DNA of 64,000 bases from an uncultured virus (IMG/VR IMGVR_UViG_2061766007_000557) (lineage: Duplodnaviria; Heunggongvirae; Uroviricota; Caudoviricetes), in IMG/VR virus record IMGVR_UViG_2061766007_000557; one strand, written 5' to 3'. Shown here piece after piece: positions 1 through 59,586 of the stretch. The translations under genes and the position numbers were made by a program. The notes below the pieces were generated by a model. That model did no database searches. It was not told the origin of the DNA and saw only the letters and a program-made list of their open reading frames with translations. Numbering within the stretch: the stretch's first letter is position 1; each line of letters opens with the position of its first letter.

Positions 1-2686
1 AAAAGTAAAAGTTTCGACATCTCCTGTAAACGCATTTTTTCCTATATTAGCTGCTGATTCTAGTAATATTACTAGTGGAAATACTTATACATCCATTTAT
101 GATTCAGGCTTAAAAATAAATCCATATTTCCATAGTTTTGCCGAAGGATTGAGTAATACTGCATACGCACATGCATCTCATGCTGAAGGTTTAGGAACTC
201 AAGCATTAAATGAAGCAGAGCATGCAGAAGGAACATATAATAAATCTAATAATATTTTAAATATTGAATTTATTGATTTAGGTTTACCAAGTGGAACAAA
301 ATGGGCGAAGTATAATATTGGTGCAACTAATGGAAATACAGCAATATCTTGGTATGGAAACTATTATTCATGGGCGGAAATAAATGCAAGAACAGTAGAT
401 TATAATGAAGGAACCTGTTAGCCACCATGTAATTGGAATAATTGTTAGTATGCCAATGGCGAATATAATAAATTAACTAAATATTGTCCTAGTGATAAAT
501 CAAACTATTGGGACGGTGATGGGAGTCCAGATGATTTAATAAATTTGGAAGATAGTGATAATATTGCAATTTAGACTTTAGGTGGTCAATGGACTATACC
601 TACTAAAGAACAATTACAGGAATTAATTGATGAAACAGATTATGAATGGATAACTGATTATTAGGACATATCTGGACTAAATGGTTATATATTTAGAGGT
701 AATGGACAAGAGTTATTTTTACCAGCTGCAGGTTATTGTTACGATTCAGAGCTCAAAAATGTTGGTAATAAAGGTGAATATTGGTCTTCTAGTCTTAACG
801 AAGATATTCCTAGCAACGCTTGGGACTTGTCCTTTTATTCTAATGACATAGACTTGAACTACTACTACCGTTACAACGGTTTTAGTATTCGTCCTGTTAT
901 AAGTGCTTTGAACTAGAATACGTCCGAAACGAATTCTGAAACAGAAATGCACACACTACATAGTGTGGGTATTGGAACTAGTGATGAAGATCGCCGAAAT
1001 GCTATCGAAATTATGTCAAATGGCAACGTCTATATTAATGGTGTTGGGAATTATGATGGAACAAATCCAGATGAGGCTGAAACTCTTTAGAATTCATTGA
1101 CTGATTTAATTCCAATTACATATGATGATTTACTTCAAAAAGTTAATTCTAAATTATTAATTCCAGGAAAAAAATATTTAATTACTGATTATATTACAAA
1201 AATTAACAATTCAGATTTTACATCTCTTGAGAAGAAATATGATGGTATTGTGTGTGAAGCAATTTCAAATTCAAAATTGTCAAAAAATAATTGTAAAGCT
1301 TTATTTACAATACCTGGAAGTGGTTAGCAAACTACTAATGAAGATGTATATATTTGGATTGATAATTTTCCTGAAAGTATAATTGAAGATGAGCCAGATA
1401 TATTACAAAATTATCATGACGACTTTAGAAGATATTTTGAGGGCTCAAAATTACATAGACTTGGGCAGATAGAATTTGAAAATGAATCTTATTGGTTATG
1501 GGAATATGTAACAAATAATGGGCTTGGTAGTGATAATTGGCTTCCAGATGTATAGTATGCACTAACTTTAGAATCAGACTTTGAAGGAAATACATTAGTA
1601 GATGATGTTACTAATATTAATCGTCCTATTTTATATTATCTAGGATCTGATAAATCTCAAATAGACTATGGTGGAGATGGAGATAAACATGATGAATATG
1701 CATGGGTAGTTGTTAAACAAGAAAAATATACATATAACCCAACAACAATTACATCAAATACTATATATGTAGAAAAATTTTCATATGATCCATTAAGCAA
1801 TGATATAGATTAGAGTTATTATGAAGAAACTAATTTTTATGAAGAGGGAGCAGGCACAACAAATGAATATAAATTAAGAGGGACTCTTGAATGGGATGAT
1901 AATGAATATTATTTATGGGAATTAACTAGTGGACATGCAATTGATGATGATCAAACATAGTATAGTTGGATGTTAACGAAAACTGCAGATTTTACTGGTT
2001 TATCATTATAGGATGATTATGAAAATAATAGATATTGTCCATGTTATTGTTTCTTAAATGAAGATAAATCTGAAGCATATTTAGATGGGTATAATTATAA
2101 CACTCACGAAATTCTTTTAATTCAAGCTGTTTATGATTCATCTCTTCCAGAAGTTGAGCCATTATCTGGTGGAGGTGGTGGAGAATACATAGCACCTAAA
2201 AAAGTTGAATGGAAAATTGGCTATGATATAATTAATAAATTTGAAGGACATAAAGGAACTATTCTTTATATGGAAGATGAATATGGGAATTCTGCAAACT
2301 TTGATTTTAAAAATATTAAATCATATAAATACGGATTTCTATTTGGTGGGGAAGAAGATTTATCATTAAATGGTGTATACAAAGAAAATAAAGTTCTTGG
2401 AGAATTAAGAGAATTTTCGATATGTTCTGAAATATGTCATGGATCTATATTTACTCAAAATTGTATTGGAACAATTTATTAGGATTTAGAAAATTGTGAA
2501 GTAAGTTATGATTATAATCAATTTATAGTTTTTGATCCATATCATCATGACACACTAAATAATATTTTAATAGAACATCAAAAAAATATTGAAGATATCG
2601 ATACAGTTACTTCCTCACTTTTAGTTGATCATGAAGACAGAATTAGAGAATTAGAATCTAAAATTGAACAGTTATTAAATGCATAA
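1..2686 (+). CDS. Tail fibre/receptor-binding protein, 5'-partial (>894 aa, TAG=Gln): HAEG repeats, internal CLec-like (Fib_succ_major-like) domain, tandem internal modules, C-terminal coiled coil
   Basis: Frame open from nt 2 to TAA 2684-2686 if TAG is read through; joins track ORFs 149, 1097 and 2270. Motifs HAEG, IDLGLPSGTKWA, FLPAAGY, YWSSSL, SIRPV, LHSVGIG. Confidence 0.8.
722..898 (+). repeat. DGR variable-region-like segment, family A, copy 1 (internal, eroded)
   Basis: Codon-colinear with 7362-7538 (PAAGY...WSSSL...RPV); run of NAC codons (GAC TTG AAC TAC TAC TAC CGT TAC AAC). Confidence 0.6.
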
Positions 2687-3533
2687 TAAATCAATTATAA
2701 TAGGCTCGTATTATTTTTTTAATAAATTTAAAGATTATAAGGTTCATGATATTGACAAATTAGTCATTTGTGACAATTTGCCAGTATCAACCTTAAATCT
2801 TAGAAGAAATAATGAAGATATATTCTTCATTAAAAAATGTTCTAAAGAAAAATTATTTAAAGAACATTTAACAAAAGAGAATCCTTTAAAAGCTGGAAAA
2901 TTTTTAATTCCAGAAGTGTGTGAAAATCTTAATATAACATTAGAGGATCTTGAACAATATGTAAAACCTATTTTAAATTCTGTAGATCATAAACATCATT
3001 ATTAGCAATTAATATTAGCTTATTATATTACTAATAAGAAAATGTCTCTTACTGAAGAGCAGTTAAATTATGTTTATGTTGACTACAAATTAACTAGATA
3101 TCAATTATATTATAATGCATTAAAAATAGGTTCCTGGGTATTTTTTGATTAGTTTCTTGATTATAAAATACATGATTTAGATTATTGTGTTTTTGAAAAT
3201 AATATATATAAACATACTTATAATAAAGAAACAAAAGAAGATATTCATGTATTACCATCTAATAATAAATCTGAATTAATAAAATATTTCAAAAATATTA
3301 GAGGTAAAAATACTACAATGATTTCTATATTTTTGTATCCAGAAGTTATTAAAGAATTAAATATAACAATAGATGATTTAAAAGAAATAAAGTAGCAAAT
3401 AGAACCTTTAAAAACTATTAAGCCTTATTTATATGCAATTTATGAATTCTATTTGGAAAATAATGAGATGTCATTAACTTAGGAATAGATAGAAAAAGCT
3501 TACGAAATATATAAAGAATTTAAGAAAAAATAA
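2679..3533 (+). CDS. 284-aa protein with two tandem Pol-beta-like nucleotidyltransferase-type repeats (TAG=Gln)
   Basis: Read-through to TAA 3531-3533. Repeats IGSYYFFNKFKDYKVHDID and IGSWVFFDQFLDYKIHDLD, each followed by FLxPEV...LNITxxDL. Confidence 0.65.
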
Positions 3534-3535
3534 TT

Positions 3536-4561
3536 ATGAATATAAATTTAGTTAAGAATAAATTAGAGATTCCTAGCGAATTAGCTCCAAATGGAATTCT
3601 TATGAATGGAATGGAAATTCCTATTAATCTTAGTGGTGGATTTATAACTTCTTTTGAAGATACTTACGTTGGAGATTCATTACAAGATTTAAAACCTATT
3701 GCAGAAAATTGTGATTGTGTTGGTGCACTAATTAGTTATGATTCAACTACATAGAAATACACATTATGGAATGGTGATAAAAATGCAGAAGGATACTGGG
3801 ATCCTCATAAATATAGTGATGGAAGTGATTATGAACCATCTGATGAATATGGAACAGTTATTGCAGTATGTGCTGGACAAGGATTATGGCCATTTGTTGG
3901 TGATTGGAAAGGATTAGATTCTGAATATTTTAATAATATTATAATAGATGGTAATAATTAGGATCATGTTTGCAAAGGATATATGAATTGGGCATCTCCA
4001 AATTCTGATATATATAATACATATATTAGTAAAATGGCTAGAAATTTAAAAGGTTATGATAATACAAAACATTTATTTGATAATTTTGGGTCTACAATAA
4101 AAGCATGGAACCATTCTGCTATTACAGATGGAGAAGAGTTTAGTACATGGGATGATTATTATGCTGCATTAACTCCAATATGGGAATATTTATTAAAATC
4201 AGATTTTTCAACTATTGGAATTAACAAATGGGAATTAAATAATGATGGCAGTGTTTTAACCTATGGAGATTTATATATACCAAGCGACACTGAATTAAAA
4301 ACAATTTTTAGAAATGTATTTGATAATAACTAGGAAGGCGAAGATGGAGACACCGAAGATATTACTGAAGACTCAATGTACTATACATATTATCATAATA
4401 TTGGTAGACTAATTGGTTTTGTATCTGACTACTATTATTGGTCTAGTTCTTAGGGCCCAGGTTACAGGAGCGCTTTCAGCGCAGGCTCAAACGATGGCGG
4501 CGACGTATTTGGCGAGAATAAGAACGGCTACAACTTGTCTGTTGTCTGTCTACACTTTTAA
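3536..4561 (+). CDS. 341-aa putative receptor-binding protein with C-terminal CLec/DUF1566-like variable domain (paralog 1)
   Basis: Joins track ORFs 3536 and 3983 through TAGs to TAA 4559-4561; YYWSSSQ motif; full-length similarity to 4583-5647. Confidence 0.8.
4421..4558 (+). repeat. DGR variable-region-like segment, family B, copy 1
   Basis: GC-richer 3' end with many NNC codons; aligns with 5465-5598. Confidence 0.65.
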
Positions 4562-4582
4562 TAATTAAAAATTCCATAAACT

Positions 4583-5647
4583 ATGAGTATAATTAAATTA
4601 ATTAGAAATAAAAAAGATTTAGTATCTACATTGCCAGGAAAATCTATTATAATGAATGGGTTAAATGATAATTTTAATTTTGGAGGAGGTCATAGTGATC
4701 CAGAAGGAAGAGTAATTGTAGATCATTTTTCCAAAATTTATCAAGGTTCTTCATTAGCAGATTTAAAAGAAATTGGAGAAAATTGTAATTGTATTGGAGC
4801 TTTATTAGCATATGATGGTTCTAAATATACAATTTTTAATGGCAATAGTTCTGCAGCAGATTATTGGGATCCTTATAAGATCATACAAGAAGATGGGGAT
4901 CCTGCACCAGAAGAACCTCCTACTACATATGGAACAGTTTTAGCTGTATGTGCCGGTCTTGGTTTATGGCCAATTAAAGATTGGTATGGTATGAATGCAA
5001 CTGATATTAGTGTTACAATTGGCAGATCAACATCTACAGTGAAACAAGGATTTATGTGTTGGGCACCTAAAAATTCAGGCTTATATAATTCATTATGTCG
5101 TTCTTGTATAAAGGGAACAGGATTAGAAAATACTTATCATATATTTAATAATCATGGTGGAGAAATTTGTAATTGGAACCATGCAAAAATATAGGATGGA
5201 CAAACATTTACAAACTTGGATGCATATCGTGCTGCGCTAACTCCATTATGGGAACAATTAACTAAATCTCAGGTAACTGGTATTAAGGATTGGCAATTAG
5301 ATGAAAATGGGAATGTTACATAGATAGGAGATTTATATATACCAAATTAGCATGAGCTTGGTGAAATCATATGGAGTTGTTCTGATATTTATGAATCTAG
5401 TGATTTAGAAGAAGAATCTCAATATTTTAGCTACAATTCTAATATTGGTTCATTTTTAGGTTTTGTACCTGCCTACAATTATTGGTCTAGTTCATAGAAC
5501 CCAGATTACTTTAGCGCATTCTACGTAAACTCAAGCAATGGCTACGTAGAAGGCGATGATAAGGACAGTTACTACTTGTCTATTGCCTGCATTCATTTCT
5601 CTTCAGAAATTTCTCATCCAGTTCCAGAAGCAGTATCTTCTAATTAA
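4583..5647 (+). CDS. 354-aa putative receptor-binding protein with CLec/DUF1566-like variable domain (paralog 2)
   Basis: Read-through to TAA 5645-5647. Shares ENCxCxGAL, YWDPxK, YGTVxAVCAGxGLWP, ALTPIWE, GDLYIP and YWSSSQ with paralog 1. Confidence 0.8.
5465..5598 (+). repeat. DGR variable-region-like segment, family B, copy 2
   Basis: Many differences from copy 1 lie at codon positions 1-2 of NNC/NNT codons (GGC/AAC, AGC/TAC, AAC/AGC, AAC/GAC, AAC/TAC). Confidence 0.65.
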
Positions 5648-5878: not shown

Positions 5879-6104
5879 ACCAGAGAAGTATCATGAAGTT
5901 CTTGATGCTTGGAAGGTTGGTTATGAATTACTGTGGAATATACGGCAAGTAGAACACACTGAGGAGGAGTTAGTTGAATTGGAAGAGCAATACAATGCTT
6001 GGAAAATTGCTAATCCTAATTTAGTGGAAGATGTTGAGGCTCATGTACCTGTAAAGCCAGAACCTGAAGATAGCAGTGAATCTGATGAATCTTCTGAAGA
6101 ATGA
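5879..6104 (+). CDS. C-terminal fragment of an acidic hypothetical protein (5' end lost in gap)
   Basis: Open frame after the N-gap, ending at a TGA that overlaps the next ATG (ATGA). Confidence 0.5.
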
Positions 6105-6592
6105 AAGTCTATAACATAGGCATAATAGACCTACCAAATGCGTCAGGATATCCTTCTTGGCGCACTTGGTTGTACATGTTAAAGAGAATTACTACTGATA
6201 AGTCATATAAAGATGTAAACATCTGTGATGAATGGCTTATATTTAGTAATTTCTAGAAGTGGTATTAGAAGCATTATGTGAAAGGTTGGCAGTTGGATAA
6301 GGACTTAAAAGGACATAAATTATATAGTCCAGAGACGTGCGTGTATTTACCGGCGGAGATTAATTAGTGCTTACAGAGGCATAAAGGCGTAAAGATGGAA
6401 AATGACAAGTGGATTGCAGAGTATAGTCGAGGAGGAAGACTAGAACGTATCGGAGAGTACGATACGGAAACTGAAGCTAAAGAAGCTTATCTTGAAGAGA
6501 AGAGAAGCTATTTAGATTGGCTTATCCAATTGAATAGATTTTAGTTGGATAAGGATACGTAGGAATTATTGATGAATTATCAATTTGACTAA
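6101..6592 (+). CDS. Free-standing HNH-type homing endonuclease-like protein with AP2-like C-terminus (163 aa, 5 internal TAG)
   Basis: Absent from the track. Manual translation: WRTWLYMLKR...SYKDVNICDEWLIFSNFQKWYQKHYVKGWQLDKDLKGHKLYSPETCVYLPAEIN...IGEYDTETEAKEAY. Confidence 0.75.
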
Positions 6593-6632: not shown

Positions 6633-7550
6633 ATGACTTATTCAATTGATTTTATTGTAAATAATGGCAAATAGCCAACTCCAGTTCCTGAATTTGTTGA
6701 CCTCGGATTAGCATCTGGAACTAAATGGGCAAAATATAATTATGGAGTTAACCCAGAACAATTAACTTCTGCTTCAGACTGGTATGGTCAATATCTAATG
6801 TGGGGTGAATTAGAGGAAAAAGAAGGATGGGATGGACAAGGAACTAAAGTTCCATATGACTGGTCTACTTATCAACATGCAAATGGCGCATCTAATAAAT
6901 TAACCAAATATTGTAATGATTCAAATTATGGAAATAACGGATTTACAGATGAATTGACGCAATTGGTTCCAGAAGATGATGTAGCTACAGTAGCTAATTC
7001 TGCATGGAGAATGCCTACTAAAGAAGATTTTGAAGAATTACTAGCAGGAACATCTAGCAGTTGGGTAGAAAATTATAATAGTATTGAAGGTTTGAATGGT
7101 AGAGTATTTATAAAAGCTAGTATTACACAACAAGCATTTAAAAATGTTACTTTATATTCTGAAATGTTTGAAGGTGAATTAACAGAAGAAACCTGGAATA
7201 TGGTAAAAATGTACACATTAGAAGAAATAAATGCATTAATCGGAGGGCAAGATATTAGAACTATGATATTTAAAGATGCAGAATATACAATACCTGCAGT
7301 TTATGGTACTGATTATGGATTTGTTGTAAAACAAACAGACCCATCCATTTCACTATTTATCCCTGCAGCCGGTTATCGTGATGGTTCTGATATCAGCGAT
7401 GTTGGTTCTGACTGTTACTTGTGGTCTTCGAGTCTTTACTTAGACGGCCCTGACAGCGCTTGCTACTTGGACTTCTATTCAGACAGTTTCAGCATGGGCT
7501 ACAACGATCGTCGCGATGGTTATAGCGTTCGTCCGGTTCTTGCAAATTAA
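6633..7550 (+). CDS. 305-aa CLec-like (Fib_succ_major-like) protein, probable DGR target
   Basis: ATG 6633 is in frame with track ORF 6798 via one TAG. FVDLGLASGTKWA, WRMPTKEDFEEL, FIPAAGY, LWSSSL, GYSVRPV at the C-terminus. Confidence 0.85.
7362..7538 (+). repeat. DGR variable-region-like segment, family A, copy 2 (C-terminal)
   Basis: Abrupt rise in C-ending codons (AGC, GAC, TAC, GGC, TGC, CGC) at the variable positions, in an AT-rich genome. Confidence 0.8.
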
Positions 7551-7560: not shown

Positions 7561-8324
7561 ATGACAAACATAATACTCTCAAGTATTGCTATACTTATAT
7601 TTACAGTATATAATATAGTGCTTATAAAAATGTATGGTGTTCCACAATCATTATCTCATACATTCTATTATCTTGAAGAACATAATCATTATGGTTGGTG
7701 GTTTACATTTATGATGTGGATAGTCAATCTAATGCTATTAGTTCCTTGGGCTTTAATTAATAATGGAATTTGTGATTGGAGCAAATACTTATGTTTCTTA
7801 CCAATATTAACAAACTTAAGTTTATTAGTTTCTTCTTATGCAGCAAATGCTAGAAAAAATGAGACATTAAAGATTGTTCATTTAACTGGCGCAAGAGTTG
7901 CTGCAGTTACAGCAATTTTATGGATTTGTATTTGTTGTTGGAAATATATGTGGGTTATTCCTGCTTGGATAGTATTTTGTGGAATATTAGCACATGCAAC
8001 AAAATCTGCTAAATTTGGTAGAGATTTNNNNNNNNNNATGGATTTGTATTGCTTGTTGGAAAATTGCTTATATAATTCCTATTTGGATATTAGTATTAGG
8101 TGGAATTGCTCATTTGACTAAAACTGCTAAAAAAGGTAGAGATTGGTGGTTAGNNNNNNNNNNAAAATATCTATCCTGGGGTGAATTAGAGGAGAAAGAA
8201 GGATGGGATGGACAAGGAACTAAAGTTCCATATGACTGGTCTACNNNNNNNNNNCTGGATTGAATGGGTTGCATTTGGACCTACTTTTACTTGTATATTA
8301 CTTGAAGCAATTTTACAATTATGA
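7561..8324 (+). CDS. Multi-pass membrane protein, paralog 1 (interrupted by assembly gaps and allelic fragments)
   Basis: Hydrophobic ORF 7561 to ~8027. Its probable 3' end WIEWVAFGPTFTCILLEAILQL-TGA lies at 8256-8324. Confidence 0.65.
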
Positions 8325-8863
8325 TATCATTTATTTTAGCTTGTATTGCAATAGGAATATTTGTTGCATATAATATAGTAACAACTAGTTTATTAGGTAA
8401 ATTACCTTATAGTATTTCAGGAACTTATTATCTTTTAAATGAAAAATATAAAGGATCTGGTATTGCATTTTCTATTATGATAATATCAGTATTTCTATTG
8501 TTATTATATCCTTGGATGTATATAACATTAGGAATAAGTTCCTGGAGCTAGTATTTATGTATATTACCATTTATATGTTCTGTTGGATGTATATTTGTTG
8601 GATGCACACCAAATATAAGAACTAGTAAACGAATTGAAAAAATACATACTATTTCTGCATTAGTTAGTGCTATTAGTGCTTTATTGTGGGTTTGTATTGT
8701 TTGTTGGAAGATTGCTTATATATTACCAATTTGTATTCTATTATTTGGCGGTATTTCTCATTTGACTAAAACTGCAAAAAGTTCTAGAGATTGGTGGTTA
8801 GAAATGTGTATATTTGTTCCAACATTTACAGCAATAATTATTGAAGGATTGTTATAGTTATGA
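8321..8863 (+). CDS. Multi-pass membrane protein, paralog 2 (180 aa)
   Basis: Read-through of two TAGs to TGA 8861-8863; similar to paralog 1 (PxSxSxTxYxL, YLCxLP, LWxCIxCWK, HxTKxAK). Confidence 0.8.
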
Positions 8864-14592: not shown

Positions 14593-14600
14593 TATAAGAG

Positions 14601-15398
14601 ATGACAGTAAGAGATGCTTATGAGGCAGTTCTAATAGAACTAAATAAAGTGCAAGCCCCTTCTATTCTTGTAGATGACTTTGTTTATTATTTTAACAAAG
14701 CAATACAAGAATATTTTAATAAAAGATACAATGTCTTCGAAACAGATCAACAAGCTACAGATGATTTGAGTAGATTGAACCGTCTTGAAACATTAAAAGT
14801 TGAAGACGGAAAAGTTAAACGTAAAGAAGATATTGTATATAAAACAGTTTGGGAGTGTGAACTTCCTTCTGATTATGTGCATATTTTAAATTGTACATGC
14901 GTATTTGAAAAACCTAAAGGGAAATGCGATGAATACTAGACTGTTGTACAAGGGGCAAATAAATTAGATACTAGTCAGGCATCTTAGGTTTTATCTAATT
15001 ATTATATGAAACCTTCTACATCTCGGCCATATTATTATATTATATATAAAGAAGAGCCAAAATTAAATTATCTTACACCAGATTCTGAAAAAGAAACTGG
15101 TATAAGATACGGCAATTCGACATAGCCGATAATGTAGATATTATGTGGAAATGAGCCTGATGTATTAAAAGCAGTTCAAATTGCTTATTTAACAGCTCCT
15201 AAATACATAACAATAGATCAATCATAGTTAGATTCAGTTGAAGATAATACGCAGATACTGGAATTTCAAGATTATGTTGTTAATGAGATAATTAAAGAAG
15301 TTGTAAAGATGATAATGGAAAATGCTAAGGACGAGCGTCTTCAGACTTTTCTTCCTATAAATCAATCAATTCCACAAAACAATAGATCTGTTAAATAA
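14601..15398 (+). CDS. Putative head-tail ring protein (265 aa, TAG=Gln)
   Basis: Read-through to TAA 15396-15398; LIELNKVQAPS, ELPSDYVHILNC, YYMKPS..RPYYY; synteny. Confidence 0.7.
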
Positions 15399-15434
15399 TA
15401 GATAACAGTTTATTTTTAAAAATAGTAATTTAAT

Positions 15435-16556: not shown

Positions 16557-16587
16557 TTTTAATTAATAGTTAACCTTTTAACTTAAG

Positions 16588-16620: not shown

Positions 16621-16625
16621 ATAAT

Positions 16626-17297: not shown

Positions 17298-17299
17298 TT

Positions 17300-27637: not shown

Positions 27638-27639
27638 TA

Positions 27640-43527: not shown

Positions 43528-43531
43528 CAGT

Positions 43532-46500: not shown

Positions 46501-49500
46501 AGAAGAAATTCAAGATAGATTAGTTGCTGGTAAAAAGCGTAATAATGCGTTTGTAGCTTCATATTTACCACAATCTGTTACTCAAAAAGGAGGTGTTGGA
46601 AAAACTGGAAGAATTGCTGTAGTAGAATCTAAAAAGCATACTTTCCAAAATTATAATTATCAAACTAATGATGGACAAGATGTATTAGATGGTTCTTGTA
46701 AGACATTAGGAATTGCTGTAAGATGGGAAAATTTAAGTTACCCTGGAAAAACGGTAACCGGTGTTAAGAAAACAATCGGACTAATTCCTACTTTAACGTC
46801 AATGCAACAATTTAAATTAGCTGATTATCCACTTGATAATAAGGCAATCATAATGTCATTTGCACAGAATGAAGAACAGGGCCAAGATTTGAGGAATCAG
46901 GCTAAAAAAATGATGTTACCTGGTATATTTACAGAAAGTTTTTATAAAGCATTTACAAATAAAAATAGACGCCAATTTGGTAGATCTTTATGTAAATATT
47001 TTGGAAAAAATGTTTATGAATTAACTGCTTTTGAAAAATTAAATGAAGATCCTAACGATCATCAATTTACTTTAGTTTGGCAAGGAGCTGACGATTCTAG
47101 TTTAACTCCAATTACAAAAACTGTTACAATAAATAATGCTTATGATTTATGGGAAGCGTTTGGAGCTGAACATACTATTGAAAATATAGATGGTAATTGG
47201 ATGCCATCTAATAATTCAATGGATATGATTGCAGATATTATTTCTGAATACGATCCAATTGTTAAGACAACAATTATTAGCAAATTAGCGGATGTTAGCT
47301 GTAATAAATCAGGTATTACAAATATAAATATATTAGATGATGTTAATGATCTTAATACACCATTAAATTTTACAGAAATAGACAATTCTCGTTGGGGACT
47401 ACAACAAGATTATTCACATGAATCTGACGAATCAACAATTCCATCACTTACCCAAGTATTATCATCTATTGGATTAAATGGTAAAAATATAAAATTTGTT
47501 TAGAGAGCTTATGAAGTGTTGTCACAAATAACACTTATGAGAGCAAATGAACTTGGTATAAAATATAATGGAACTAAAGAAGATGAAATTAAGTTCTATC
47601 GAAAAACAGTAAAAATGCTTGTAGATAGTCTTGAATCATCTTCTACTTCAATCAGCGATTCTGTCACACAAATTAAGAAAGCACAATAGATTTTGGAAGA
47701 AGCTGGGAAAGATAAATTAACAGAAATTCCAGAAAATGGAAAAGTGCCATTTAGTTCTCCTGATATATTTTATAAATTAGCTAGTGATTTTATATCTTTA
47801 CTCAATAAAAAATCTATTAGATAGACATATAATGGTATTGCTATAATTCAAAATCCATCTCATAGTGTTGTTGGAGTATATGAAGACAATCGAGGTAATA
47901 CATATTTTTCGTGGCAAATTAGAGAAATAGGTAGACAAGATCCTAGAGTAAACGAAAATACTACAGAAGCAGAAATTTTACAATATGGATTAGAAGATCC
48001 TAGATTTAATGAAAGGAGTTTCTTAACAGAAGGAAGACCTTTAACATTAGCAGATCTTGATTTGGAAGATTCTTATAGAATAGAAATTGTTGACAATCTT
48101 GGAAATATAGTAAAAACATCTAAAAGAGATGTAATAAAATCGGGTAAAATAAATTCTGCAGAAGATTTATTTAAATTAGAAGACTACTTAAAAAGAGCGT
48201 TATCTTTCTGGAAATGGGCTACAGGTGATGAGAAAGTCAGCTATAGAATATTTAAAACATTTAAAGGTCAGCGAAATCTCAAAGGACCAATTCTTAAGTT
48301 TACTGAAAACGGTATAAAAAAGAATTTCTGGCTTACAGAAGCTGTTCGAATGAGAAGAGCTGCAGAAATGTCTGGAGATACAAAAGAAATTTTAAGATCT
48401 CTTGAATATTATAGAGCTAATTTAGATGGTCTTGGTAGTGAAAATCCATATTATTATGCTACTTACGCTGATTTTATAGCTGGAAAGGAAGAAAATAAAA
48501 CATATGTTAATAATGTAGAATTTCAACCAGGTGAACAAATATTGCCAAAAGTAAATAAATCTGCTCAATATTTAGGAAATACTGCTTTATCTGATATTAT
48601 TAATCAAGGTCCTAGTTATTTTTACGGACAGGCTGATAGACAAATTGCTAAAACAAACAAACTGTCTATAAGTTCTGTAAGTGAAAGTGGGCAACTTACA
48701 TTTAATGGTAATCTAATAGTTACTGCTGTTAGAAATGATGATGAAATTGTTTATACTGATCAACCTTTTGTACAAAATCAAGAACAAGTTACAACTGAGC
48801 TTTTAGGAGGAAATAATGTAACTTTAAAAGATGGTATTTGGTACAGAGATGACTTTGGACATGATTTATTTAAAGTTCCGTCAGAGAATTCTAAAGTATA
48901 TAAAATTTCTTCTAATTCAAAAACTGTATATATTATAAATGATACATTAGAAAATATTCAAGGATCTATTGTAGACTGTCTATTTGACCTAAGTGGTGTA
49001 AATGCTGTTTATCAAGAAATGTCATCCAGAGATTTAGGATTAAGTACTGGAGCATTACGTGCATTAAATAATGGCATAGATACAGATTCTTCAATAGAAT
49101 TAGAAAAATTCAAACAAGAATATGCACAAAAATTATATGATAGTTTTGTATTAAGTAATTATACTATTTCGGCACGTATTCCGTCGCAATCATTCCAATC
49201 GTTTATGGCTAATAAAACTATTGGATTTACTTTAGATGATTTAAATAACGGATATGTAAATTTACATGAAGTATGGTTTACAGGATCTGATTATGACATT
49301 GATAAATTATATACAATGCTATATTCGTTAGATAAAAACGGATGTATTGCAACACCCTCTCCTTTTAGTATAATTCGCTCTCCTAAATTATTAAAAGAAT
49401 CATTATCATTACCGTTACCTAATAGTAATAGGATTATTCGAGTTGATAAAGAAGATAATGTAAGTGCACAATTATTAACTATTTGTAAGAAATATACAGG

Positions 49501-52500
49501 AACTAAATTTACAGATTTAAAAGCAGCATATAGTGTTATTAATTAGATGCGGCAAAGTAATGAAGAATCTAAAAATTTAAAATATTTATAGATTATTCAT
49601 GAAATGTTAGATGCAGTTAATTCCACTCCAAATCCAAAAGTTAGAAAGATGAGTGGATTAATACACGCATTGAATAAACATAATATGACTAAGCCATCTG
49701 TTGCAGCTCTTAAAAATATAATTGTAAACACTATATATGAGTGTTCTTCTGATATAAAGAATCTTGAATCTTCTCAACAACCCATGGCAGCAAAACCTTT
49801 TACTGATTTAATTAATGAAGTAGAAAGAGAAGCTAAAGGAAGAAAAAAAGTATCATATAATGATTATGATCCAACAACAAAATATAGAATCCAATACGAA
49901 AACTCTGTTGGTAAAAAGAACGTTGGTATTGCGGCTAATGGTATAAAAGCTGCAGCTGCTGCTCAACAATACTTTAATTTATATTATACTAATTGGGGAA
50001 AACGTTTTGTTGCTGGAGATATTATATTGTTAAAAAATAATAATGAAGTTGAATTTTTAGAATATTTGCCAAATAATTAGCTTTAGGTTAAAGTAAAAGA
50101 CAATGATAAACCTATAACAATTAATTCAGAAGATGTTGCGTCCTCATATGCAATTCATAATAATACATATCGTTTTTCTGTAAAAGATGAAAACGGTAAT
50201 ATTAAAGAATATGGATTTCCTATAAGTATTCATCAATCTTATAAAGAAACAGATGAAAATAATCAAGAAGTAATAAGATACCGTGATATTTATACATCTA
50301 ATGAAGTAACATTCGGAGATGTTGTATTAGATGAAAATGAGAATATTGCAAGAGAAAAGTTTAAAAGATTATATTTAGGTGCTGAAAAAGTAAATGGTAT
50401 CTTGAACTTTACTGAAGTAAAAGCATTAAAACATCTTATTGAAAATGGTAAATTCTTAGAAGCTGAAGTTTTAACAGAAGATGGGGAAATTATAAATTAT
50501 TATTGGCTTGACGATAATGACGGAAAAATGAAACTTAAAAGTCAATATCGCAAACTACAAGCAATTTGGGAATTATATAAAGAACGTACTGGAATTCAAA
50601 CATTGTTTGAAGGAACAGAAGAGCAACAAGAAGATGCTGTAATTGATTTTATGTTTTATAAACGTAAATTTAATGCTAATGTTGCAGACCAAATTTCTAT
50701 TTTGTTATCGTTAGCTACAGATAATGCAAAAGAGTTAGCTTTAGCTAGAATCAATGCTAACCCTCAATTAATGTCATTGCCAATTGCTATGTTAACAATA
50801 GGAATGGATCCTAAATCAGTAATTGATGTTTGNNNNNNNNNNTACAGATAATGCAAAAGAGCTAGCTTTAGCTAGAATCAACGCTAATCCTCAATTAATG
50901 TCATTGCCGATTGCTATGTTAACAATAGGAATGGATCCTAAATCAGTAATTGATGTTTGTATTAATGTTCTTGATCCTATTGCAAGGAAAATGGAAGGAA
51001 ATAGATTGCAAGATAATGTTTCTACGAATGTAAGGAAATTGATTCTTAATGAAGATTCTTATGACGAAGTAACAAGGCAATCATTACTAAGAATATTTGA
51101 TTTTGCGCAAGAGTTAAGAACAATTACATCTTTCTTTAAAGTCAACCAAGGTGTTACTGCACAATATATTGAATTGCTCGATTTCTATCAGAAACTTGCT
51201 AATAGTAAGAGATAGATGGAACAAAGAAAAGGTGTAAAAAATGCAACAGTTTCACTAGATTTAAATAAATTATTTGCTTATAGTAATAATCCTGAAGATA
51301 TAGAAGCAACTAAACAATATATATCAAATTTAGTAGCTGATATTAATAAATCTAAAACTGGAATTAATGTAATTGATATTGTTACTAAAAATCCTAATTT
51401 TAATTCAATGCTTTAGGCAGTTCAAATAGACATGAACACCTTGAAACAATTAGCAGGTGCTGCTAGATTTGTAAATCAACGATCATTAGAAGATTTAGAT
51501 TCTGAATCAGATTCAAGAAGATTTAGAAATTTAGTTAGTATTTATTAGGATTTTATTATAGGAGAAACATTAAAACAATTACAGGACTTTAAATTTAAAG
51601 TTGGAGATTTAAAAGTTGCATTAAATACTAACACCTTACCTGTTGATCTTGCAGATGAAGTAGTTTTTGGGTTAAATACAGATATTGGCGTAAATAGCTT
51701 TATGAAAATAATGAATGAGGTAGTTATTCCAAATTTGAAAGATCAATATCAGAATAACTTCTTTATGAATTCATTACAAGAAAGTGTAAGACGTCAAAAA
51801 ACAGTTTGGGATATCAAATATGATGTATTTAATCAAGAAGATGTTGCAGAACAAGAAAACATTCTTAACGCTTTAAATGCATTTAGCCAGATTGGTAGAT
51901 TTAGTTCAGGCCTTGTTACTACTAATGGAGGTCAAGTATCGATTGCTTCTGCTTTATATTTATATAATTTGATAGCATTTAAGAAACAAATGTCAGCACT
52001 TGATAAAATCGTTTCTACTTTTGCTAACAAAGAAGACAATAAAATTGCTTAGCTTCTAACTGATACTTATATTAAATTTGATGAATCTCGAGATCCAATA
52101 GAGACTGTTTATCCTACATTAAATCTAGTGCAAAATGCAGTAATGAATGGCACATTTGAATCAAGTGCACCAGGGCAAGCATCTATTGATTTGCGTGATT
52201 CTTACATATGGTCATTTGTATCACCTCAATATGCTAGAAAATTAGTAGATGTAATTGACAAAAGAATAAATGTTGAAGAAGATTTAGGTGATAAATTATT
52301 ATTAAGTGTTGATTTAGGAGATATTGGAATTTTATCACTTCCTCCAATTAAAAAACCTTTAGGTTATACTACATTAGATAATTTACAATTAAATCCAAAA
52401 GAATTACAAGTAATAGTAGATCAAATTAATTTTGCAATAAATACTTATACAGTTGATGGTAAAGATGTTATTAATAAAAAGAATTTTGATCAAAAATGGA

Positions 52501-54788
52501 TAAAATCATTTGAACCTGATTTAAAAACTATATTTAAATCAATAGATAATGTAAAACTATTACATGGCATAAATATTAATAAAACATCTTTTATATCAAA
52601 TTCTCATGGATATGTTGTAAAACATAATGGCAAGAAACCTACTATTGTTTTAGATGGAGAATTATTTGATGATCAAAGTCCTATAACTGAAGAAAATCAA
52701 TACGAAATCTTAGATTTGATGATTCAATCACAAGTAGATAATACTGTTTAGGAAAAATTAAAGTATTTACAAAACTTGTTAGATACTTTAAAAATTAAAG
52801 ATAAACAAAAAGTATATAAAAAATATTGTGATTGGTTATTAAATAATTATCCAGAACAAAATGTAATACTTGCTGCAGAAAGTGCTTTCAATGCTACTCA
52901 ATTATATAGAGATCGAAAAGATTTATATTATAGAATACCTGCTAAATTTGAAACTGATAAAAAGAATTTAGTATTAGAAATTGGTGATTTTGTAACATTA
53001 GATCAATTTGGTGATGAAAGATTTATGTATATTGGTTTTGTAGATGGAAGTCATATATTCTACGATCTAGAAGAAACTAAATTCCATAAAGCGCAAGATC
53101 TATCTGAATGTAATTTACAAGAACGTTTACGAGTTAATTTAGATTATTCTCCTAAAAAACCATTTGTAAATTATTCATCTGAATGGATTGATAGTAAAGG
53201 AATTCAAGTAAAAGAAGGTGATAAAGTAAAAATTGATCTTAAAGAATATATAGTATACGACCTATTATATGATCCACTTGATTCTGGAGAATATAATACA
53301 TTATATTTAGCTTTAAGTTCAAGAGGTGACTTTTCTATTTTACGTGAATCTGATATAGCAAAAGCTAAAGTATTACAAGCAACTTCTGCCGATCAATAGC
53401 AAGATAAATAGAATAAAATTGATATAGCTACTTCTTTCGGTCAATCTGCAGAATTATTAACAAGATTAAAAGCTGGTGATAATATTGAAATAAAAGGAGG
53501 AAGAAATGCTAAATTCTTAAGATATTTATCTAAAGACAACATTCAAGTAGAAACTGCAAACGGTAATGAAACAATTAAATTATCTAATGTACAAGCTATA
53601 TATACATATAGTGAAAAACTTATAGATAAAAAATTCTTACAAGAATCAAAACCTATATCTATTCCTTTAAAAAACCAATCTGATCGATACGGAACATTTC
53701 CTAAGATGCTTCAAGCTAGTTACGGATTAAAACCAGTATTAGTAAAGCAACAAGGATCTTCTGTATTATATTTTACAGATAATGCTGAAAATTATCAATA
53801 TAATTTTATCACATCTTATACAAAAATATCAAATATGTCAACTCCAGAGCTAGGAGATATATTTATTGAACATAACGGAGATGAAGGAGATGTGATATAT
53901 AAGATTACTTCAAAATCATCTGTAGATGGACAAATTACGTTCGAATTAACATATGTTCAATATAGTACTTCTGATGAATCAATAGATAAAATTAAATGTG
54001 GTAAGTTGTATTTAAATGATTCCGCTACTAAAGTATTAACTGAAAAATCACAGCTATTTAGAGAAAATTCAAAAGTAAATAAACCTACTTATCAAATAGG
54101 TAAACAATATCCAATAAAATTATCTGCTAATAGCAAAGGAGCAATCCTGATTGATTATTTAAAAGATCATTTTGGATTAAAAATAGTTACTACTAAAGGT
54201 CAAAAAGAACTCGCTAGTATTAAAAACGGAATGATAAGTATAAGAGCAAATGAAGATGGAACAAGAATGTCTGAAGGAGAAATTATAAAGCATTCTATAC
54301 ACGAATTTACTCACTTGGCTTTAGCTTCATTTAGAATGAAAGATCCAGATGGATATACTTCTATGATTACCAGATTTGGAAAAATAATTGAGCCGATATA
54401 TTCTTAGCCGAAAGAAAATGAATATTATATTAGAAATTTTGAAGAAATTGATAATGATAATATTCACTATCCGACAAGAATAGATAAGATTGAAGAGAAG
54501 ATTATTAGATATTTAACTAATACTCGTTCATTCGCATCTATTGATGAATAGAATTTTGGTAAAGAAGAGTTAAAGAATTATATTAATAAAGGATTTGGAA
54601 CATTGATAGGAGCAGGTGATTTGCAGCTAACAGATTATGATAAACTTAACTCTATTGAATGGTTAATAAATAGATATGGAGATGAATATTTCTTTGATGA
54701 TGTAGTTGAAAATTTGGATATGCTTGCATTGAAGAAAAATGAAAGATTTAAAAAATTATTAAGTAAAATAGAAGAATATTGTTTTTAA
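43532..54788 (+). CDS. Giant virion DNA-dependent RNA polymerase (~3700 aa) with C-terminal zincin-like motif; frame change at the 50833 gap is an assembly artefact
   Basis: ARIPSQ and GSDYDIDK (DxDxD at 49289-49303); HEFTH at 54300-54314; duplicated sequence flanks the gap. Confidence 0.85.
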
Positions 54789-54789: not shown

Positions 54790-57700
54790 ATGGGATGTTT
54801 CTATGTATACGATAATTCACTTAGCTCGGGTAAAACCGGGCTAAGTGATAATGTCATTGATGGTGTTAAAAATGGAAAATTAATAGGATATAGTAAAGAT
54901 AATAATTTAGAATATTTTGCAGCAAAAAGTATTTATGAAATTCAAAGTGCTTTAGCTGGAGAAATTGATTATTCAGAAGATCCTGATCTTATATTCTATG
55001 ATGCCTCTGTATCTCCACAAGAGGAGATAAAAGCTAAAATTAAACACGCTGCTGATTTATTTAAAAAAGCTAAAGATTCAGGAGAAGATTTAGGAAAAGA
55101 GGTTACAACTCTCATTAAAGAAACGTTTCCTAGATCTATTTCGGTATCTAAAGATGATTTTTATGGAGATAATAAAACAGCTGAATGGATCCGTAATTTT
55201 TAGTTAGATTTAGGAACGAAAATTCACGAATGCATTGCTGCTTATGGAACAAAAAATTGGAATAAAACATTAAATCAGACAGTAGATTTTCTATTTGAAA
55301 AAAAATCTCAAATAAAGGATTTAAATCTTGAAACGGTTTACACAAAAAATAGAGTAAAAATGCTTCTTGAACTTGTAGATAAAGAAGCTGTATCATCAGA
55401 TTTAACATCATTAGTTGAAAAGTTACATGAAGAATTTGAAGGAAAAGATGTTTTATTTGAAGTTCCATTGTATTATGATTCGCCGACTGGAGAAAGAATA
55501 CAAGGTAGATTAGATGCTATTGTAATAGATTCTGATGGAAATATTACAATATATGATTTTAAAACATCTGCAACAATGAAACATAATGAAAACTCTGATC
55601 GAGATCATTATGCACAACTATTTTTATATAAGAATTTATTAGCTTCTTATGGAATTCCTCCAAAGAAAATAAAAATAATGAATACTCATATAAGATATGC
55701 AGAAGGATTTAGTAAAATACTAGAAATTCCAAATTCAGAAATATATAAAATTTTTAGTTTAAATTCTGCTAGTAATCCTGTAAGATATCAATCTGATGTT
55801 AATGCTGCTTTTCGTAAATATTTTCCAAGAACATCTAATATTTTAACTGCAGAAGAAGAAAGAAAATTAGTAGAAAAAATAAGTGGTTTAAAATCAACAA
55901 TTTTTTCAGAGAAAATATTAAACAAAGAATCCGAAGATCATTTTACAGAATATATAGAAAAATTACCAGAAGATAAACCAATATATTCATATTATCATAG
56001 AAGTACATTTACTATTAAACGAGATGGTGATAGAATTAAACTAATACCAGTTGATAGAAATATAACCCCAGACGATATAGATGAATTGCTTGCCGATTTT
56101 ATAGCAAATGAATTAGATGCTAGAAAAACTCATAAGATAGAAACATTAGAGTTATTTAAAGATGCTTTAGAAAGTGGTGATCCACAATAGATATCTAATT
56201 TAATGACTTCTAGATATGGAGGTAGAAACATTAATATTCTAACAAGTATTGGAGAGTATATACATCCAGATTGGGAAGTTGTAAATAGTCCTATTTTTGA
56301 TAACCTAGGAATTATAGTAATGTATAATTCATTAAGTGATACTTATGATTTTATTAATTTGATAGACGATGTTAATTTCGATGCAACATATCACTTAAGT
56401 TTAGATGAGCAAGTAACCATGAATGCATTAGGAAACGTATTAACAGAATAGGAATTAGCTCGATATAAAGATGGAAATATGCCGGCGACTGTTGGAAATA
56501 TAGCATCTTTACGAGCGTTAATTGCTATTTCATTAGCGTCTAAAACATTAAAAAAAGAAGGAAACAATTTAAAAATAGGACAAATTAAAATTGTAAGTAA
56601 AGTTACAGGTAATTCACATCTTGTTTTAAATTAGGATCCTTATATTAAGCAATTAAGAATTATAAAGGATGCAGAATCAAAAAAAGGAGGAGCTTCTAAC
56701 TTAGATCTAAATAGTCTTGATGAATTATTAAATAATATCAGTACTACTTAGTTTGGAACAATGAGCGATCAGGTATTAAATATGCTGCGAGGAGTAATGT
56801 TTATGGCATATACTTCTGATGATTCTAGATTTACAAGGCATTGGATCGATGAAGTAGATGATTCTACTAAAAAAGGATTAAGTATTGCTGAAAAAATTCA
56901 AGGATTACAAGATATTCAAGAAGAATTTAGAAAAGAATTTTTACCATATATACAAGATAAGACATCTAGACAATATAATACAGATTATGAAAAAATTGAT
57001 CAAATGCTTAGTGTATTGATTACATCATATCAAGGATTATTAACAGATCAAGTATTTGCAACGTCTGGAATGTCTGTAGATTATAATAATTCTTTAAGAT
57101 TATCTAGACAATTATTAAAGCATGGAAATATAAGTAATATATCATCAGAGGGATTTCTTATTACAGGTTTACTTCAAGGATTATCTTCAGCTACTCCTTA
57201 TGCAAATCCTGATGATATAGTACGGCAATTATCAACATTGCATAACTTTGCAACTACAAAAATTCAATTAGAAGCAGAAAAATATATAGAAAATCAAAAT
57301 CAAGCTACATCTAAATGGATTGCATCAAAAGAAAGTTTAGCAAAAACTTTATTAAATGGAAATCACAGAGATTTGTACGCATTACTATTTGAAAAAGATG
57401 AAAATGGAAATATTTCTAAAGAATTTAGATTTAAAAATCCATTTGACGAACAAAGTGATTTAACACTAGAAGATAGAGAATTTTTGAAAACGAGTATTTG
57501 GAATTTATATAGATTGCGTGCAGTTGCACAAGACTCTAAAATTAAATCATATACATATGATGAATTAGTAAAAGATAAAACTGAGCATGAGAAATTTAAA
57601 AAAGCATGTTTTGATTTAAATTCTGGTGTATTAAATATTCCTTTAAGAACAGCAAAAGATGGACGTTTAGTTGCAAATATAGCCAAATCTATAGCAAAAG

Positions 57701-59586
57701 GAGATTTCAAAAAAGTTTCACAATTCTGGAAGAAAAAATTAGAAAAGAGTCGTCATTGGTGGGATCCAATAGGATTAACTGATAAACAACTCAATGAAAA
57801 AGAAGAAAAAATAAAAGCGCTACAAGCATACAATATGTATGCTGCTACTAGTAAAACTGACAGAAAAACTAGACTAGCAGAAACTCCGTTAGATGGATTT
57901 GAATGGAATGTTAATTTCTTAGTAAACGATTTTATTTATAGTTACGTATCTGTAGAAGTAAATCAAGAAGTTTTAAATACAACAGATAGACTAATTGCTG
58001 TTTTACAATGGGTGCATTAGTTAACAGGAAAAGATGTTTCTGGACAAATTGAGGAAATTAAAAAACGTACAAGAATCTCTATATACAACATGAATACTGC
58101 GGATAGAGATTACAAAGACGTTGTTGATCTAGTAAGTCATTTGAGAACTGTTTATAATTTAGGTGTTATAGGATTTAGACCGATTTTGATGGCTAAAGAA
58201 TTAACACTAGGTAGAATTAAAAATATAATGCATACTGCTTTTGGATATTTTGATAATGATGAAATATCAATGAAAAATATGTTATTAGCAGAAAAAATAG
58301 TATTTAGTGAAGGTGTTGTTGGAGAACATTGGAGTAAAGCTACTGGTAAAATGAAACCTGGCGACCGTCTTAAGGTTGATGCTTTGAACTGGTTATATCG
58401 TATTGCAAATATGGATGCTAACATCTTAACGCAAAAAACATTAGCAGATCGTGTAGGATTTTTAAATATGGGTGGAGATATAGCGTATTATACTAATGTT
58501 AGACCAGATTGGTACAATCGACTTTCTATATTTGTTGCTAAAATGTTGCAAGATGGAACATGGGATGCTCATTATTTAGATGAAAACAATCATTTGGTAT
58601 ATGATATGAAACGAGATGAACGATATAATGTATTTTGTAAATATTTAAATAAGCCAGAACCTAAAAAAGGAAATACTGATTTTGAAGAATATCAAAAACA
58701 AAAAGCAAGATATAATTATGCTCTTGATTCGTTTAATAAAGTTGGTATAAAAAACAGAAATGGACAAGCTTTAAAATATGGAGATTTGTTACCAATTGCT
58801 TACACTGTAGAAGAAACTAATTCTATAAAGGAAATAACTGGTATGTTATATGGTTATTATAACCATGAAGAAAAGACAAGTTTCCAAACAGGGACATATT
58901 CGTAGTTATTTATGGCATTTAAAACATATCTTGCTGGAGAATTAAAATATTATTTTGCTTTACCTAATGGTAAAACTTCAGTTGGTAAAATCGCACAAAT
59001 TACAGACGGAATTCCAACAGAAGAACACCCAGAAGGATCTCCTTTATATATTCAACATGACGATGTAACTGACTTAGATATATATACCACTGAAAAATAT
59101 GATAAAAATGGAAATGCTAATGATCCATATTATGGATGGACTTCTAATCAAATAGAAGGTCTTATAACATCTACAATTATTTGTTTAGGAGATATATTTA
59201 CTGAAAGAGGAAGAGAAGATCTCAGAACTAATAAACGCAGAAGAAAAAATGCAGAAATGTTTTTATTAAGAATGTTAATTGCTTTATTATTAGGAAGTTT
59301 AGGAATATTAATAAAAGCAAAAAACGATAGTAAAGAACAAAAAGATGCATAGAAAGGATTAAATTTAACACTCAATGTGCTAAATAAAGTAGGAAACGAT
59401 CTTAGTTTTTATCATTCTGTTTTAGAACCAGTTGATGATTTAGGTTTAGTCGGAGTAGATTATCTAGAAAAACTAGCGAAAAATACAGTAACTGCAATGA
59501 CAAATGGTGATAAAAAAATGCAAAGATTAATCTATAAAAATATATCTGCGGCAAACGACTTTAAAGAATTCTTAGAAGAGCAATAA
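54790..59586 (+). CDS. Giant virion protein (~1598 aa) with PD-(D/E)xK nuclease domain and a C-terminal hydrophobic helix
   Basis: LGTKIHE...EVPL...GRLDAIVID...IYDFKTS...QLFLY; all fragments in one frame to TAA 59584-59586. Confidence 0.8.

Follow-up and report, generated by a model that had tools for sequence, protein, structure and literature searches.

Reassignment of TAG from stop to glutamine (TAG-to-Gln, NCBI code 15) in the late genes of crAss-like phages has been described by Yutin (2021; PMC7886860), Borges (2021; 10.1101/2021.08.26.457843) and Peters (2022; PMC9523058), with metaproteomic proof of such recoding for two crAss-like phages. The first-pass annotation of the DNA analysed here had rightly called this type of recoding established. 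Borges (2021) reports two changes, TAG to Gln and TGA to Trp, as the only ones observed in phages with a code unlike that of their host.

Two TAG-recoded relatives were used for comparison. In MT835492.1 (Bacteriophage sp., 121.6 kb) the open reading frame (ORF) cover rises from 0.45 with code 11 to 0.88 when TAG is read as sense, and its recoding is restricted to one arm of the genome. In the IMG/VR genome G001 (192.6 kb, locus L057) the ORF cover of the locus rises from 0.54 to 0.97. MT835492.1 has 6 tRNAs, none with the anticodon CUA; G001 has 23 tRNA calls plus a tmRNA, including a tRNA with a CUA anticodon.

Genome organisation and relatives

The stretch of DNA that was analysed (the window; 64,000 nucleotides, IMG/VR record IMGVR_UViG_2061766007_000557) is very probably the late arm, encoding virion and virion-associated proteins, of a previously unsampled Crassvirales phage, followed by the first part of the early arm on the other strand; in the late arm TAG is read as sense, most likely as Gln. 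A profile scan placed it in the Crassvirales by Pfam families for capsid, muzzle and tail-ring proteins, with signature matches to PF23898 (4.5e-15), PF25731 (1.4e-31) and PF24228 (1.2e-9). Like the known recoded crAss-like phages, which belong to the same order, the window has TAG in the late (structural) arm only and a standard-code-compatible early arm, terminates its genes with TAA or TGA, is AT-rich (G + C content 0.27–0.33) and carries a group I intron in the capsid gene; as in those phages, close relatives switch among three codes (standard, TGA-recoded and TAG-recoded). Unlike them, it is divergent and has no suppressor tRNA in the available 64 kb. Its late arm is syntenic with MT835470.1, MT835492.1 and six IMG/VR records. 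MT835492.1 has 23–49% protein identity to the window, is more heavily recoded and lacks the IF3 gene, whereas MT835470.1 uses the standard code and matches the recoded block gene by gene, its homologous genes being uninterrupted.

No match to positions 13744–18426 was found by megablast in the GenBank phage collection, and the muzzle protein alone, used as a query in IMG/VR, retrieved no close relative. The best identity to relatives was 31–33% for the muzzle protein and 68% for the marker protein. A three-sequence alignment of the protein encoded at 16626–17297 led to 80 related loci, of which 55 use the standard code, 22 are TGA-recoded and 3 are TAG-recoded. The public runs sharing most of the window's words carry bovine-gut labels only, and may include its source; the lineage is apparently from the bovine gut. 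Exact 35-base patterns from both ends of the window had no match in viral contigs, and a 35-base window-end pattern had none in genome contigs or metagenome contigs. Most late proteins were without a match in PHROGs, and five window proteins compared with PDB sequences gave 0 matches. There are seven runs of N in the window, and positions 8028–8254 are scaffold debris, in which 8164–8244 repeats part of the gene at 6633–7550.

On the plus strand, the window opens in a gene for a tail-fibre-like protein (2–2686, 5' end open) with a weak Lcl_C-like domain, in which 12 TAGs make up 41% of the Gln-type codons. Two paralogous membrane-protein genes lie further downstream. The first (7561–8324) is broken by runs of N and by the debris; in the second (8321–8863) both Gln-type codons are TAG. 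Their ends agree exactly with those quoted in the first-pass annotation, the first closing with CAA TTA TGA (8304–8324) and the second with TAG TTA TGA (8843–8863). The major capsid protein gene (11075–13660, Pfam Crass_capsid) is free of TAG. It is interrupted by an insert of roughly 1.1 kb, with group I intron signatures at 12097–12251 and 13184–13216 and a NUMOD homing-endonuclease ORF at 12256–13179; in relatives the gene is contiguous.

Among the core structural genes that follow (13744–17998, plus strand), those at 13744–14592, 15435–16556, 16626–17297 and 17300–17998, the last encoding tail ring protein 1, contain no TAG, and the gene at 14601–15398 contains 5. The most TAG-rich large gene encodes a large structural protein (about 18931–22644, plus strand); modelled with a start at 18865 it has 21 TAGs, 45% of its Gln-type codons. 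It precedes the muzzle gene (22637–27637, plus strand, 8 TAGs), which is identified by its crAss_MUZ match (1.4e-31). A DUF192 protein is encoded at 29020–29649, and a protein of 2644 aa with an AAA_19/AAA_30 P-loop domain at 35593–43527 (26 TAGs), both on the plus strand. The next gene on this strand is a giant one (43520–54788, 23 TAGs), listed as 43520–50851 and 50823–54788. These two are probably one gene, split by a gap of 10 N (50833–50842) with duplicated flanks, in which 38 of 38 residues are identical on each side. No family match was obtained for 43520–54788 in PHROGs or Pfam, including virion RNA polymerase; by position only, we take it to occupy the place of the virion RNA polymerase in crAss-like phages. 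The recoded block closes with a gene (54790–59586, plus strand, 8 TAGs) for a protein of 1598 aa with an N-terminal PD-(D/E)XK nuclease domain (PF12705). The nuclease and the giant genes lie downstream of the structural block, in the conserved Crassvirales order.

Use of TAG in the late arm

Across the plus-strand block from 1 to 59586, TAG is beyond reasonable doubt a sense codon. With TAG as sense the block holds 33 gene models (19,199 codons), in which TAG occurs in frame 147 times and TAA and TGA not at all. The figure of 147 would shift with other gene models; the TAG at 18916, for one, is probably upstream of a true start at 18931. In the two off frames of the same models, TAA was counted 861 and 1283 times, TGA 193 and 1062 times and TAG 598 and 372 times. 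The models terminate with TAA (27) or TGA (6), never with TAG. The first-pass annotation had observed that ORFs break at TAG, that the frame continues and that the rebuilt genes end in TAA or TGA with tight overlaps, and all of this was borne out. Overlaps of the ATGA type were found at 8860, 17995 and 33777, and one of the TAATG type at 18426. The proposed comparison of coding density showed that the ORF cover of 1–59586 increases from 0.586 with the standard code to 0.968 with TAG as sense, and that only TAG restores it: the cover was 0.599 with TGA and 0.626 with TAA as sense. With code 11, plus-strand ORFs of at least 100 aa averaged 211 aa and reached 505 aa at most; with TAG as sense they averaged 537 aa and reached 2645. 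In-frame TAGs make up 147 of the 847 Gln-type codons of the late arm (about 17%).

The minus-strand block at 59636–63876 is compatible with the standard code and encodes IF3, a DNA ligase, a dUTPase and a radical-SAM-like protein. Its eight ORFs contain no in-frame TAG and stop at TAA or TGA only. Six of these minus-strand genes have 0 TAGs to 48 Gln codons (P = 1.1e-4), and seven core genes of the plus strand have 0 TAGs to 69 Gln codons (P = 1.9e-6). TAG-free early-arm and core structural genes are what is known from phages in which only the late genes are recoded.

Assignment of TAG to glutamine

Judged from the aligned residues, Gln is the best-supported assignment of TAG, as had been claimed. 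In a Codetta-like test with one observation per column, applied to 37 TAG columns aligned with relatives lacking TAG recoding, the posterior was 0.973 for Q and 0.025 for K; for 9 well-conserved TAG columns the posterior of Q was 0.995. Q was the commonest residue in 6/37 TAG columns, compared with 72/290 CAA/CAG columns and 179/7354 other columns, and the probability of at least 6 TAG columns at the background rate is 2.5e-4. Of the cells in standard-code representatives, 36/155 (0.232) were Q at TAG columns, against 0.242 at CAA/CAG columns and a background of 0.034. Three TAG columns were invariant for Q or nearly so: 19063, with Q in 9/9 standard-code and 9/9 TGA-recoded representatives; 15225, in the gene at 14601–15398, with Q in 9/9 standard-code representatives; and 29608, in the DUF192 gene, with Q in 8/8 relatives. 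In the muzzle gene, column 27011 is mostly Q.

The reciprocal test gave a similar picture, since the TAGs of four TAG-recoded relatives were 5–24 times likelier to fall on CAA/CAG codons of the window than on other codons, and the in-frame TAGs of G001 align preferentially to its Q and TAG codons. As a control of the method, in-frame TGA of TGA-recoded relatives stood opposite W of the window in 66/130 cases. With TAG read as Q the Gln content is 4.4%, without it 3.6%, and in the TAG-free minus-strand genes 4.2%.

Some of the evidence first cited for Gln had to be amended. The motif C[TAG]YANG in the gene at 2–2686 does align to the Q of YQHANG in its paralog at 6633–7550; the TAG spans 446–448, for which 447 had been given. 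Likewise, the TAG of L[TAG]NDMGN at 19063 lies on a Q column, but the gene is not that of the muzzle, which is the neighbouring gene downstream because the crAss_MUZ match falls on 22637–27637. Within the window, TAG stands opposite CAA/CAG in two paralog pairs. Over all paralog columns compared, Q was found in 1/13, with 3 gaps and 2 TAGs opposite TAG; these columns were too few and too variable to serve as a test of the amino acid.

Alternative explanations

We consider it improbable that TAG, though sense, stands for a residue other than Gln (Lys, Arg, Glu, Thr or another) or is decoded ambiguously. The tabulation of homologous residues, which favours Gln overall, draws its signal mostly from 14.6–29.6 kb. 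The far half alone (27–60 kb, 18 columns, 22–30% identity to relatives) ranks R, T, S and K above Q, with R, T and S favoured; there Q is commonest in 1/18 TAG columns and its fraction is 0.096 (CAA/CAG columns: 0.223). Furthermore, at six conserved TAG columns the relatives have E, I, D, G, M or R. Column 15135 is E in 17/17 representatives, 47822 is R in 8/8 relatives and, in the muzzle gene, relatives have I at 24833, D at 24923 and G at 26096; K, the runner-up overall, reaches a posterior of 0.067 against MT835470 alone. However, Q is usually replaced by K, R or E and the CAA/CAG columns spread alike, the combined posterior is for Q and most strongly so at the conserved columns, and repeated invariance at TAG columns is seen for Q only. 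Any other residue would also fall outside the two changes given by Borges (2021; 10.1101/2021.08.26.457843).

It is very improbable that TAG is still a stop, in fragmented or decaying genes or with rare context-dependent readthrough. The lack of a suppressor tRNA within the window would fit this, and four TAGs at most 13 codons from a gene end (genes at 8860, 9750, 28602 and 29020) could be real stops; by arithmetic on codon counts, however, roughly three are expected by chance. Decay would scatter all three stop codons through the frames, which instead run up to 2644 codons with TAG as the only one of them, and homology to relatives persists across the TAGs. These are spread evenly in the genes (19, 8, 13, 16, 20, 14, 13, 12, 15 and 17 per gene decile), and the base that follows them (A 0.43, C 0.13, G 0.23, T 0.21) is unlike that after true terminators (T 0.58). 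The chance that the code is standard, with the TAGs altered in RNA (e.g. edited to CAG) or introduced by assembly errors, appears close to nil. No support for it was found, although gaps and debris are present in the scaffold. From an RNA library (run X10, record 5), a contig of 183 bases matches 18891–19073 with 0 differences and retains the TAGs at 18916, 18955 and 19063, which is weak evidence against editing because DNA can occur in RNA libraries. That 147 errors should all yield one codon, in frame only, is not credible, and relatives from other samples share the pattern. In the covered parts of 14000–29700, four public runs showed no difference at a TAG codon among the 40 differences listed of about 980.

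Decoding of TAG

In agreement with the first-pass annotation, which had seen no suppressor tRNA or release factor, ARAGORN and Rfam detected no tRNA in the 64-kb window, including the phage-encoded CUA-anticodon suppressor that is frequent but not universal in such phages, and Pfam detected no release factor or aminoacyl-tRNA synthetase among the 39 gene models scanned. Because the window has none of these and the rest of the genome was not found, we infer the decoding agent by analogy with known systems. After infection, the host glutaminyl-tRNA synthetase would charge a UAG-reading tRNA (anticodon CUA) with Gln, and this tRNA would outcompete the host RF1; the TAG-bearing late genes could therefore be translated only after this suppressor had become available. 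As an inefficient codon, TAG would be avoided in genes whose products are required early or very abundantly. The suppressor may be encoded outside the window; alternatively, as many recoded crAss-like phages do, this one may lack it or have one that cannot be recognised.

The CUA tRNA of G001 is 52% identical to the tRNA-Gln and 57% to the tRNA-Leu of the same genome, and by similarity it is not distinctly Gln-like. It shares with that tRNA-Gln a U1-A72 start, which we take to be a Gln identity element and which is suggestive only. Searches of five relatives for the RF-1/RF-2 domain (PF00472) and IF3_C (PF00707) gave no match. Rather unlikely, in our view, is that the phage, like MT835492.1, reads its 147 TAGs without a recognisable phage tRNA-CUA, by an undescribed agent that might be a suppressor, split or highly divergent, a host tRNA-Gln in modified form, or the inactivation of RF1. 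On this reading, the phage IF3 adjoining the recoded block might contribute to a wider takeover of the host's translation; a search of the literature on phage IF3 found nothing relevant.

Conclusions

The TAG recoding in this window is one more case of a phenomenon known in crAss-like phages; the phage itself is new and divergent. The existing mechanistic picture is unchanged by it. Annotation with the standard code would break the late genes into about 57 plus-strand pieces (each 100 aa or longer) and would conceal proteins as long as about 2,600 residues; with TAG read as Gln they are recovered. To the TAG-recoding crAss-like phages the window adds a divergent lineage, apparently of the bovine gut.

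TAG is a sense codon in the late genes

Read with the bacterial standard code (code 11), the plus strand of 1-59586, the late or virion arm, breaks into 57 ORFs of 100 aa or more, averaging 211 aa, which cover 0.586 of the block. With TAG as a sense codon the number falls to 37, the average length grows to 537 aa (longest 2645 aa) and the cover rises to 0.968; control reassignments of TGA and TAA to sense gave 0.599 and 0.626, respectively. Codons were counted in 33 non-overlapping gene models of this block, comprising 19,199 codons. These contain 147 in-frame TAGs and not a single in-frame TAA or TGA. In their two off frames, TAA occurs 861 and 1283 times, TGA 193 and 1062 times and TAG 598 and 372 times. 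All models terminate in TAA (27) or TGA (6), several genes being joined by ATGA or TAATG overlaps. In-frame TAGs are distributed evenly over the length of genes, and the nucleotide 3' of them is unlike that 3' of true terminators. Taken together, this stop codon usage, the even spread and the distinct following base show that TAG is a sense codon in the plus-strand late genes. The ORFs broken at TAG with a continuing frame, the TAA/TGA ends and the overlaps described in the first-pass annotation were thus confirmed.

Gene decay or sporadic readthrough as the source of the broken ORFs was ruled out, as both are incompatible with the in-frame stop pattern. Weak evidence against RNA editing of this codon comes from a contig of an RNA library that is identical to 18891-19073 and retains three TAGs.

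Probable assignment of TAG to glutamine

Window proteins with X at each TAG were aligned to relatives by tblastn, and each of the 20 residues was scored for how well it predicts the relatives' residues at TAG columns, with emission tables learned from the same alignments. In the near half (9-29 kb), clustering of the loci at 90% identity left 24 representatives, of which 9 are standard-code, 11 TGA-recoded and 4 TAG-recoded. Among the standard-code representatives, 36 of the 155 cells at TAG columns were Q (0.232), compared to 0.242 at CAA/CAG columns and a background of 0.034. Counting each column once, Q was commonest in 5/17 TAG, 40/132 CAA/CAG and 115/3660 overall columns; the posterior for Q was 0.994. 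At column 19063 (motif L[TAG]NDMGN, in the gene upstream of the muzzle gene), Q was present in all 18 representatives that are not TAG-recoded and TAG in one TAG-recoded relative, and at column 15225 all 9 standard-code representatives had Q.

For the far half (27-60 kb), the relatives were six standard-code records, one TGA-recoded record and the GenBank phage MT835470.1, with an identity of 22-30% except for the small genes at 28602 and 29020 (37-47%). Here Gln was not favoured: its share of cells was 0.096 at TAG columns versus 0.223 at CAA/CAG columns, it was commonest in 1 of 18 TAG columns (29608, Q in 8/8), and R, T and S fitted best. Over all columns, Q was commonest in 6/37 TAG, 72/290 CAA/CAG and 179/7354 other columns; the chance of at least 6 such TAG columns is 2.5e-4 at the background rate, and that of at most 6 is 0.15 at the true-Q rate. 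The posterior over all 37 TAG columns was 0.973 for Q and 0.025 for K. For the nine conserved TAG columns, where the residue is Q in three and E, I, D, G, M and R in one each, the posterior for Q was 0.995.

Two paralog pairs inside the window align TAG to CAA/CAG, in line with the paralog evidence put forward earlier. The Gln content is 4.4% with TAG as Gln and 3.6% without; the former is closer to the 4.2% of the TAG-free minus-strand genes. In-frame TAGs of four TAG-recoded relatives fall on window Q codons at 0.032-0.074 per codon, versus 0.003-0.016 elsewhere. As a control of the method, in-frame TGA of TGA-recoded relatives was opposite window Trp in 66 of 130 cases; the signal is noisier for Gln, as expected because Gln is a weakly conserved residue. 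The alignments therefore support the proposed reading of TAG as Gln, mainly through the better-conserved genes.

Distribution of TAG

The eight listed minus-strand ORFs (59636-63876), at the start of the early arm, include IF3, an ATP-dependent DNA ligase, a dUTPase and a radical-SAM-like protein. None contains an in-frame TAG and all stop at TAA or TGA. Across six of them there are 48 Gln codons and no TAG (P = 1.1e-4 at the plus-strand TAG share); the genes of the early arm can be read with either code. TAG in the late arm and TAG-free early-arm genes match the two-part pattern published for crAss-like phages.

Within the plus-strand block, seven genes are TAG-free (both putative capsid exons, the intron endonuclease, 13744-14592, 15435-16556, 16626-17297 and 17300-17998), with 69 Gln codons and no TAG (P = 1.9e-6), a hint of TAG avoidance in the most abundant virion proteins. 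The TAG share peaks in tail-fibre-like and accessory genes: 0.41-0.67 in the genes at 2-4561, 0.45 in 18865-22644, 0.56 in 6101-6592 and both of the two Gln-type codons of a membrane protein (8321-8863). Gene 6101-6592 encodes a free-standing HNH endonuclease (PHROG 953, 9.3e-43) and has the densest TAG in the window (5 in 163 codons), in contrast to the TAG-free intron endonuclease (12256-13179).

Decoding of TAG

Among crAss-like phages, 243 were reported with TAG as Gln or TGA as Trp, mostly in late genes; the code changes between phylogenetically close phages, and a suppressor tRNA was not found in every case (Yutin 2021, PMC7886860). According to a preprint, 35-40% of recoded phages carry suppressor tRNAs; these are proposed to be charged by host GlnRS, and recoding is proposed to set the timing of late and lysis genes (Borges 2021, 10.1101/2021.08.26.457843). 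A 2026 preprint describes amber reassignment without a CUA-anticodon tRNA in a Segatella copri crAss-like phage. Based on this literature, a Gln-charged CUA-anticodon tRNA, once expressed, would compete with RF1.

As the first-pass annotation had stated for suppressor tRNAs and release factors, a tRNA scan found no tRNA within the 64-kb window, and in a Pfam scan none of 39 window models matched a release factor or an aminoacyl-tRNA synthetase. An RF-1/RF-2 domain was found in none of 5 relatives, and none of the six tRNAs of GenBank phage MT835492.1 has a CUA anticodon. The related, TAG-recoded IMG/VR record G001 (192.6 kb) does encode a CUA-anticodon tRNA, of 90 nt with a long variable arm, which by similarity is not clearly Gln-like. 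Decoding of TAG without any recognisable phage suppressor appears improbable.

The first 36 kb of G001 (loci L117 and L118) contain a tmRNA and yield 23 tRNA calls. Long variable arms and an unusual length of 85-93 nt are common among these tRNAs, for example in tRNA-Gln(UUG), tRNA-Glu, tRNA-Lys and the CUA-anticodon tRNA. Two ARAGORN calls there show an odd anticodon of two bases.

Gene structure and assembly

The major capsid gene (11075-13660) is split into an N part to 12088, identified by Pfam as Crassvirales major capsid protein, and a C part from approximately 13274; it is uninterrupted in MT835470.1 and MT835492.1. The insert (12089-13273) matches Rfam Intron_gpI at 12097-12251 (41.5 bits, E 8e-9, under the gathering score of 50) and 13184-13216 (18 bits), and contains a TAG-free plus-strand ORF for a NUMOD/I-HmuI-like homing endonuclease (12256-13179). 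This insert is probably a group I intron like those described from capsid genes of some crAss-like groups (Yutin 2021, PMC7886860). Pfam also identified tail ring protein 1 (17300-17998) and the muzzle protein (22637-27637), both on the plus strand, and placed a PD-(D/E)XK nuclease domain at the N-terminal end of the last giant gene product.

A tail-fibre-like paralog family (2-2686, 3536-5647, 6633-7550) shares a C-terminal module (...YWSSS...) with weak Lcl_C similarity; paralogs 3536-4561 and 4583-5647 have TAG in the same column after WSSS (4451, 5495).

The window contains seven runs of N: 10 N each at 5869, 8028, 8154, 8245, 50833 and 60190, and 188 N at 60323-60510. Region 8028-8254, in which 8164-8244 duplicates part of gene 6633-7550, looks like scaffold debris. 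Since an identical 38 residues are encoded on either side of the gap at 50833, 43520-50851 and 50823-54788 probably form a single gene of approximately 3,700 codons.

A full-length translation initiation factor IF3 (59636-60163, minus strand; IF3_N 1.1e-26, IF3_C 3.6e-31) lies directly beyond the recoded block, contiguous with it up to 60189. IF3 was present in none of 5 relatives. Of 50,697 phage records searched by tblastn, 30 carry a similar gene, and huge phages account for several of these. Its CAG:CAA ratio (7:7) differs from the rest of the window, so it may have been captured recently from a host.

Relatives and their genetic codes

The plus-strand block is syntenic, in reverse orientation, with the metagenomic phages MT835470.1 (117 kb), which uses the standard code (ORF cover 0.93), and MT835492.1 (121.6 kb), which is likewise TAG-recoded in one arm (cover 0.45, rising to 0.88 with TAG as sense). 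No near-identical sequence was found among GenBank phages or in IMG/VR; the only public runs with most of the window carry the label bovine gut, and the window may derive from them.

A profile search of IMG/VR gave 80 related loci, many with parent records of 90-193 kb; judged by ORF cover, 55 of these loci are standard-code, 22 TGA-recoded and 3 TAG-recoded. The closest by marker protein (L007, 68%) is TAG-recoded, and the next eight listed (L008-L015, 59-61%) are TGA-recoded; the genetic code therefore flips repeatedly within this clade. TAG recoding is already well established in the Crassvirales, and the window adds another case.
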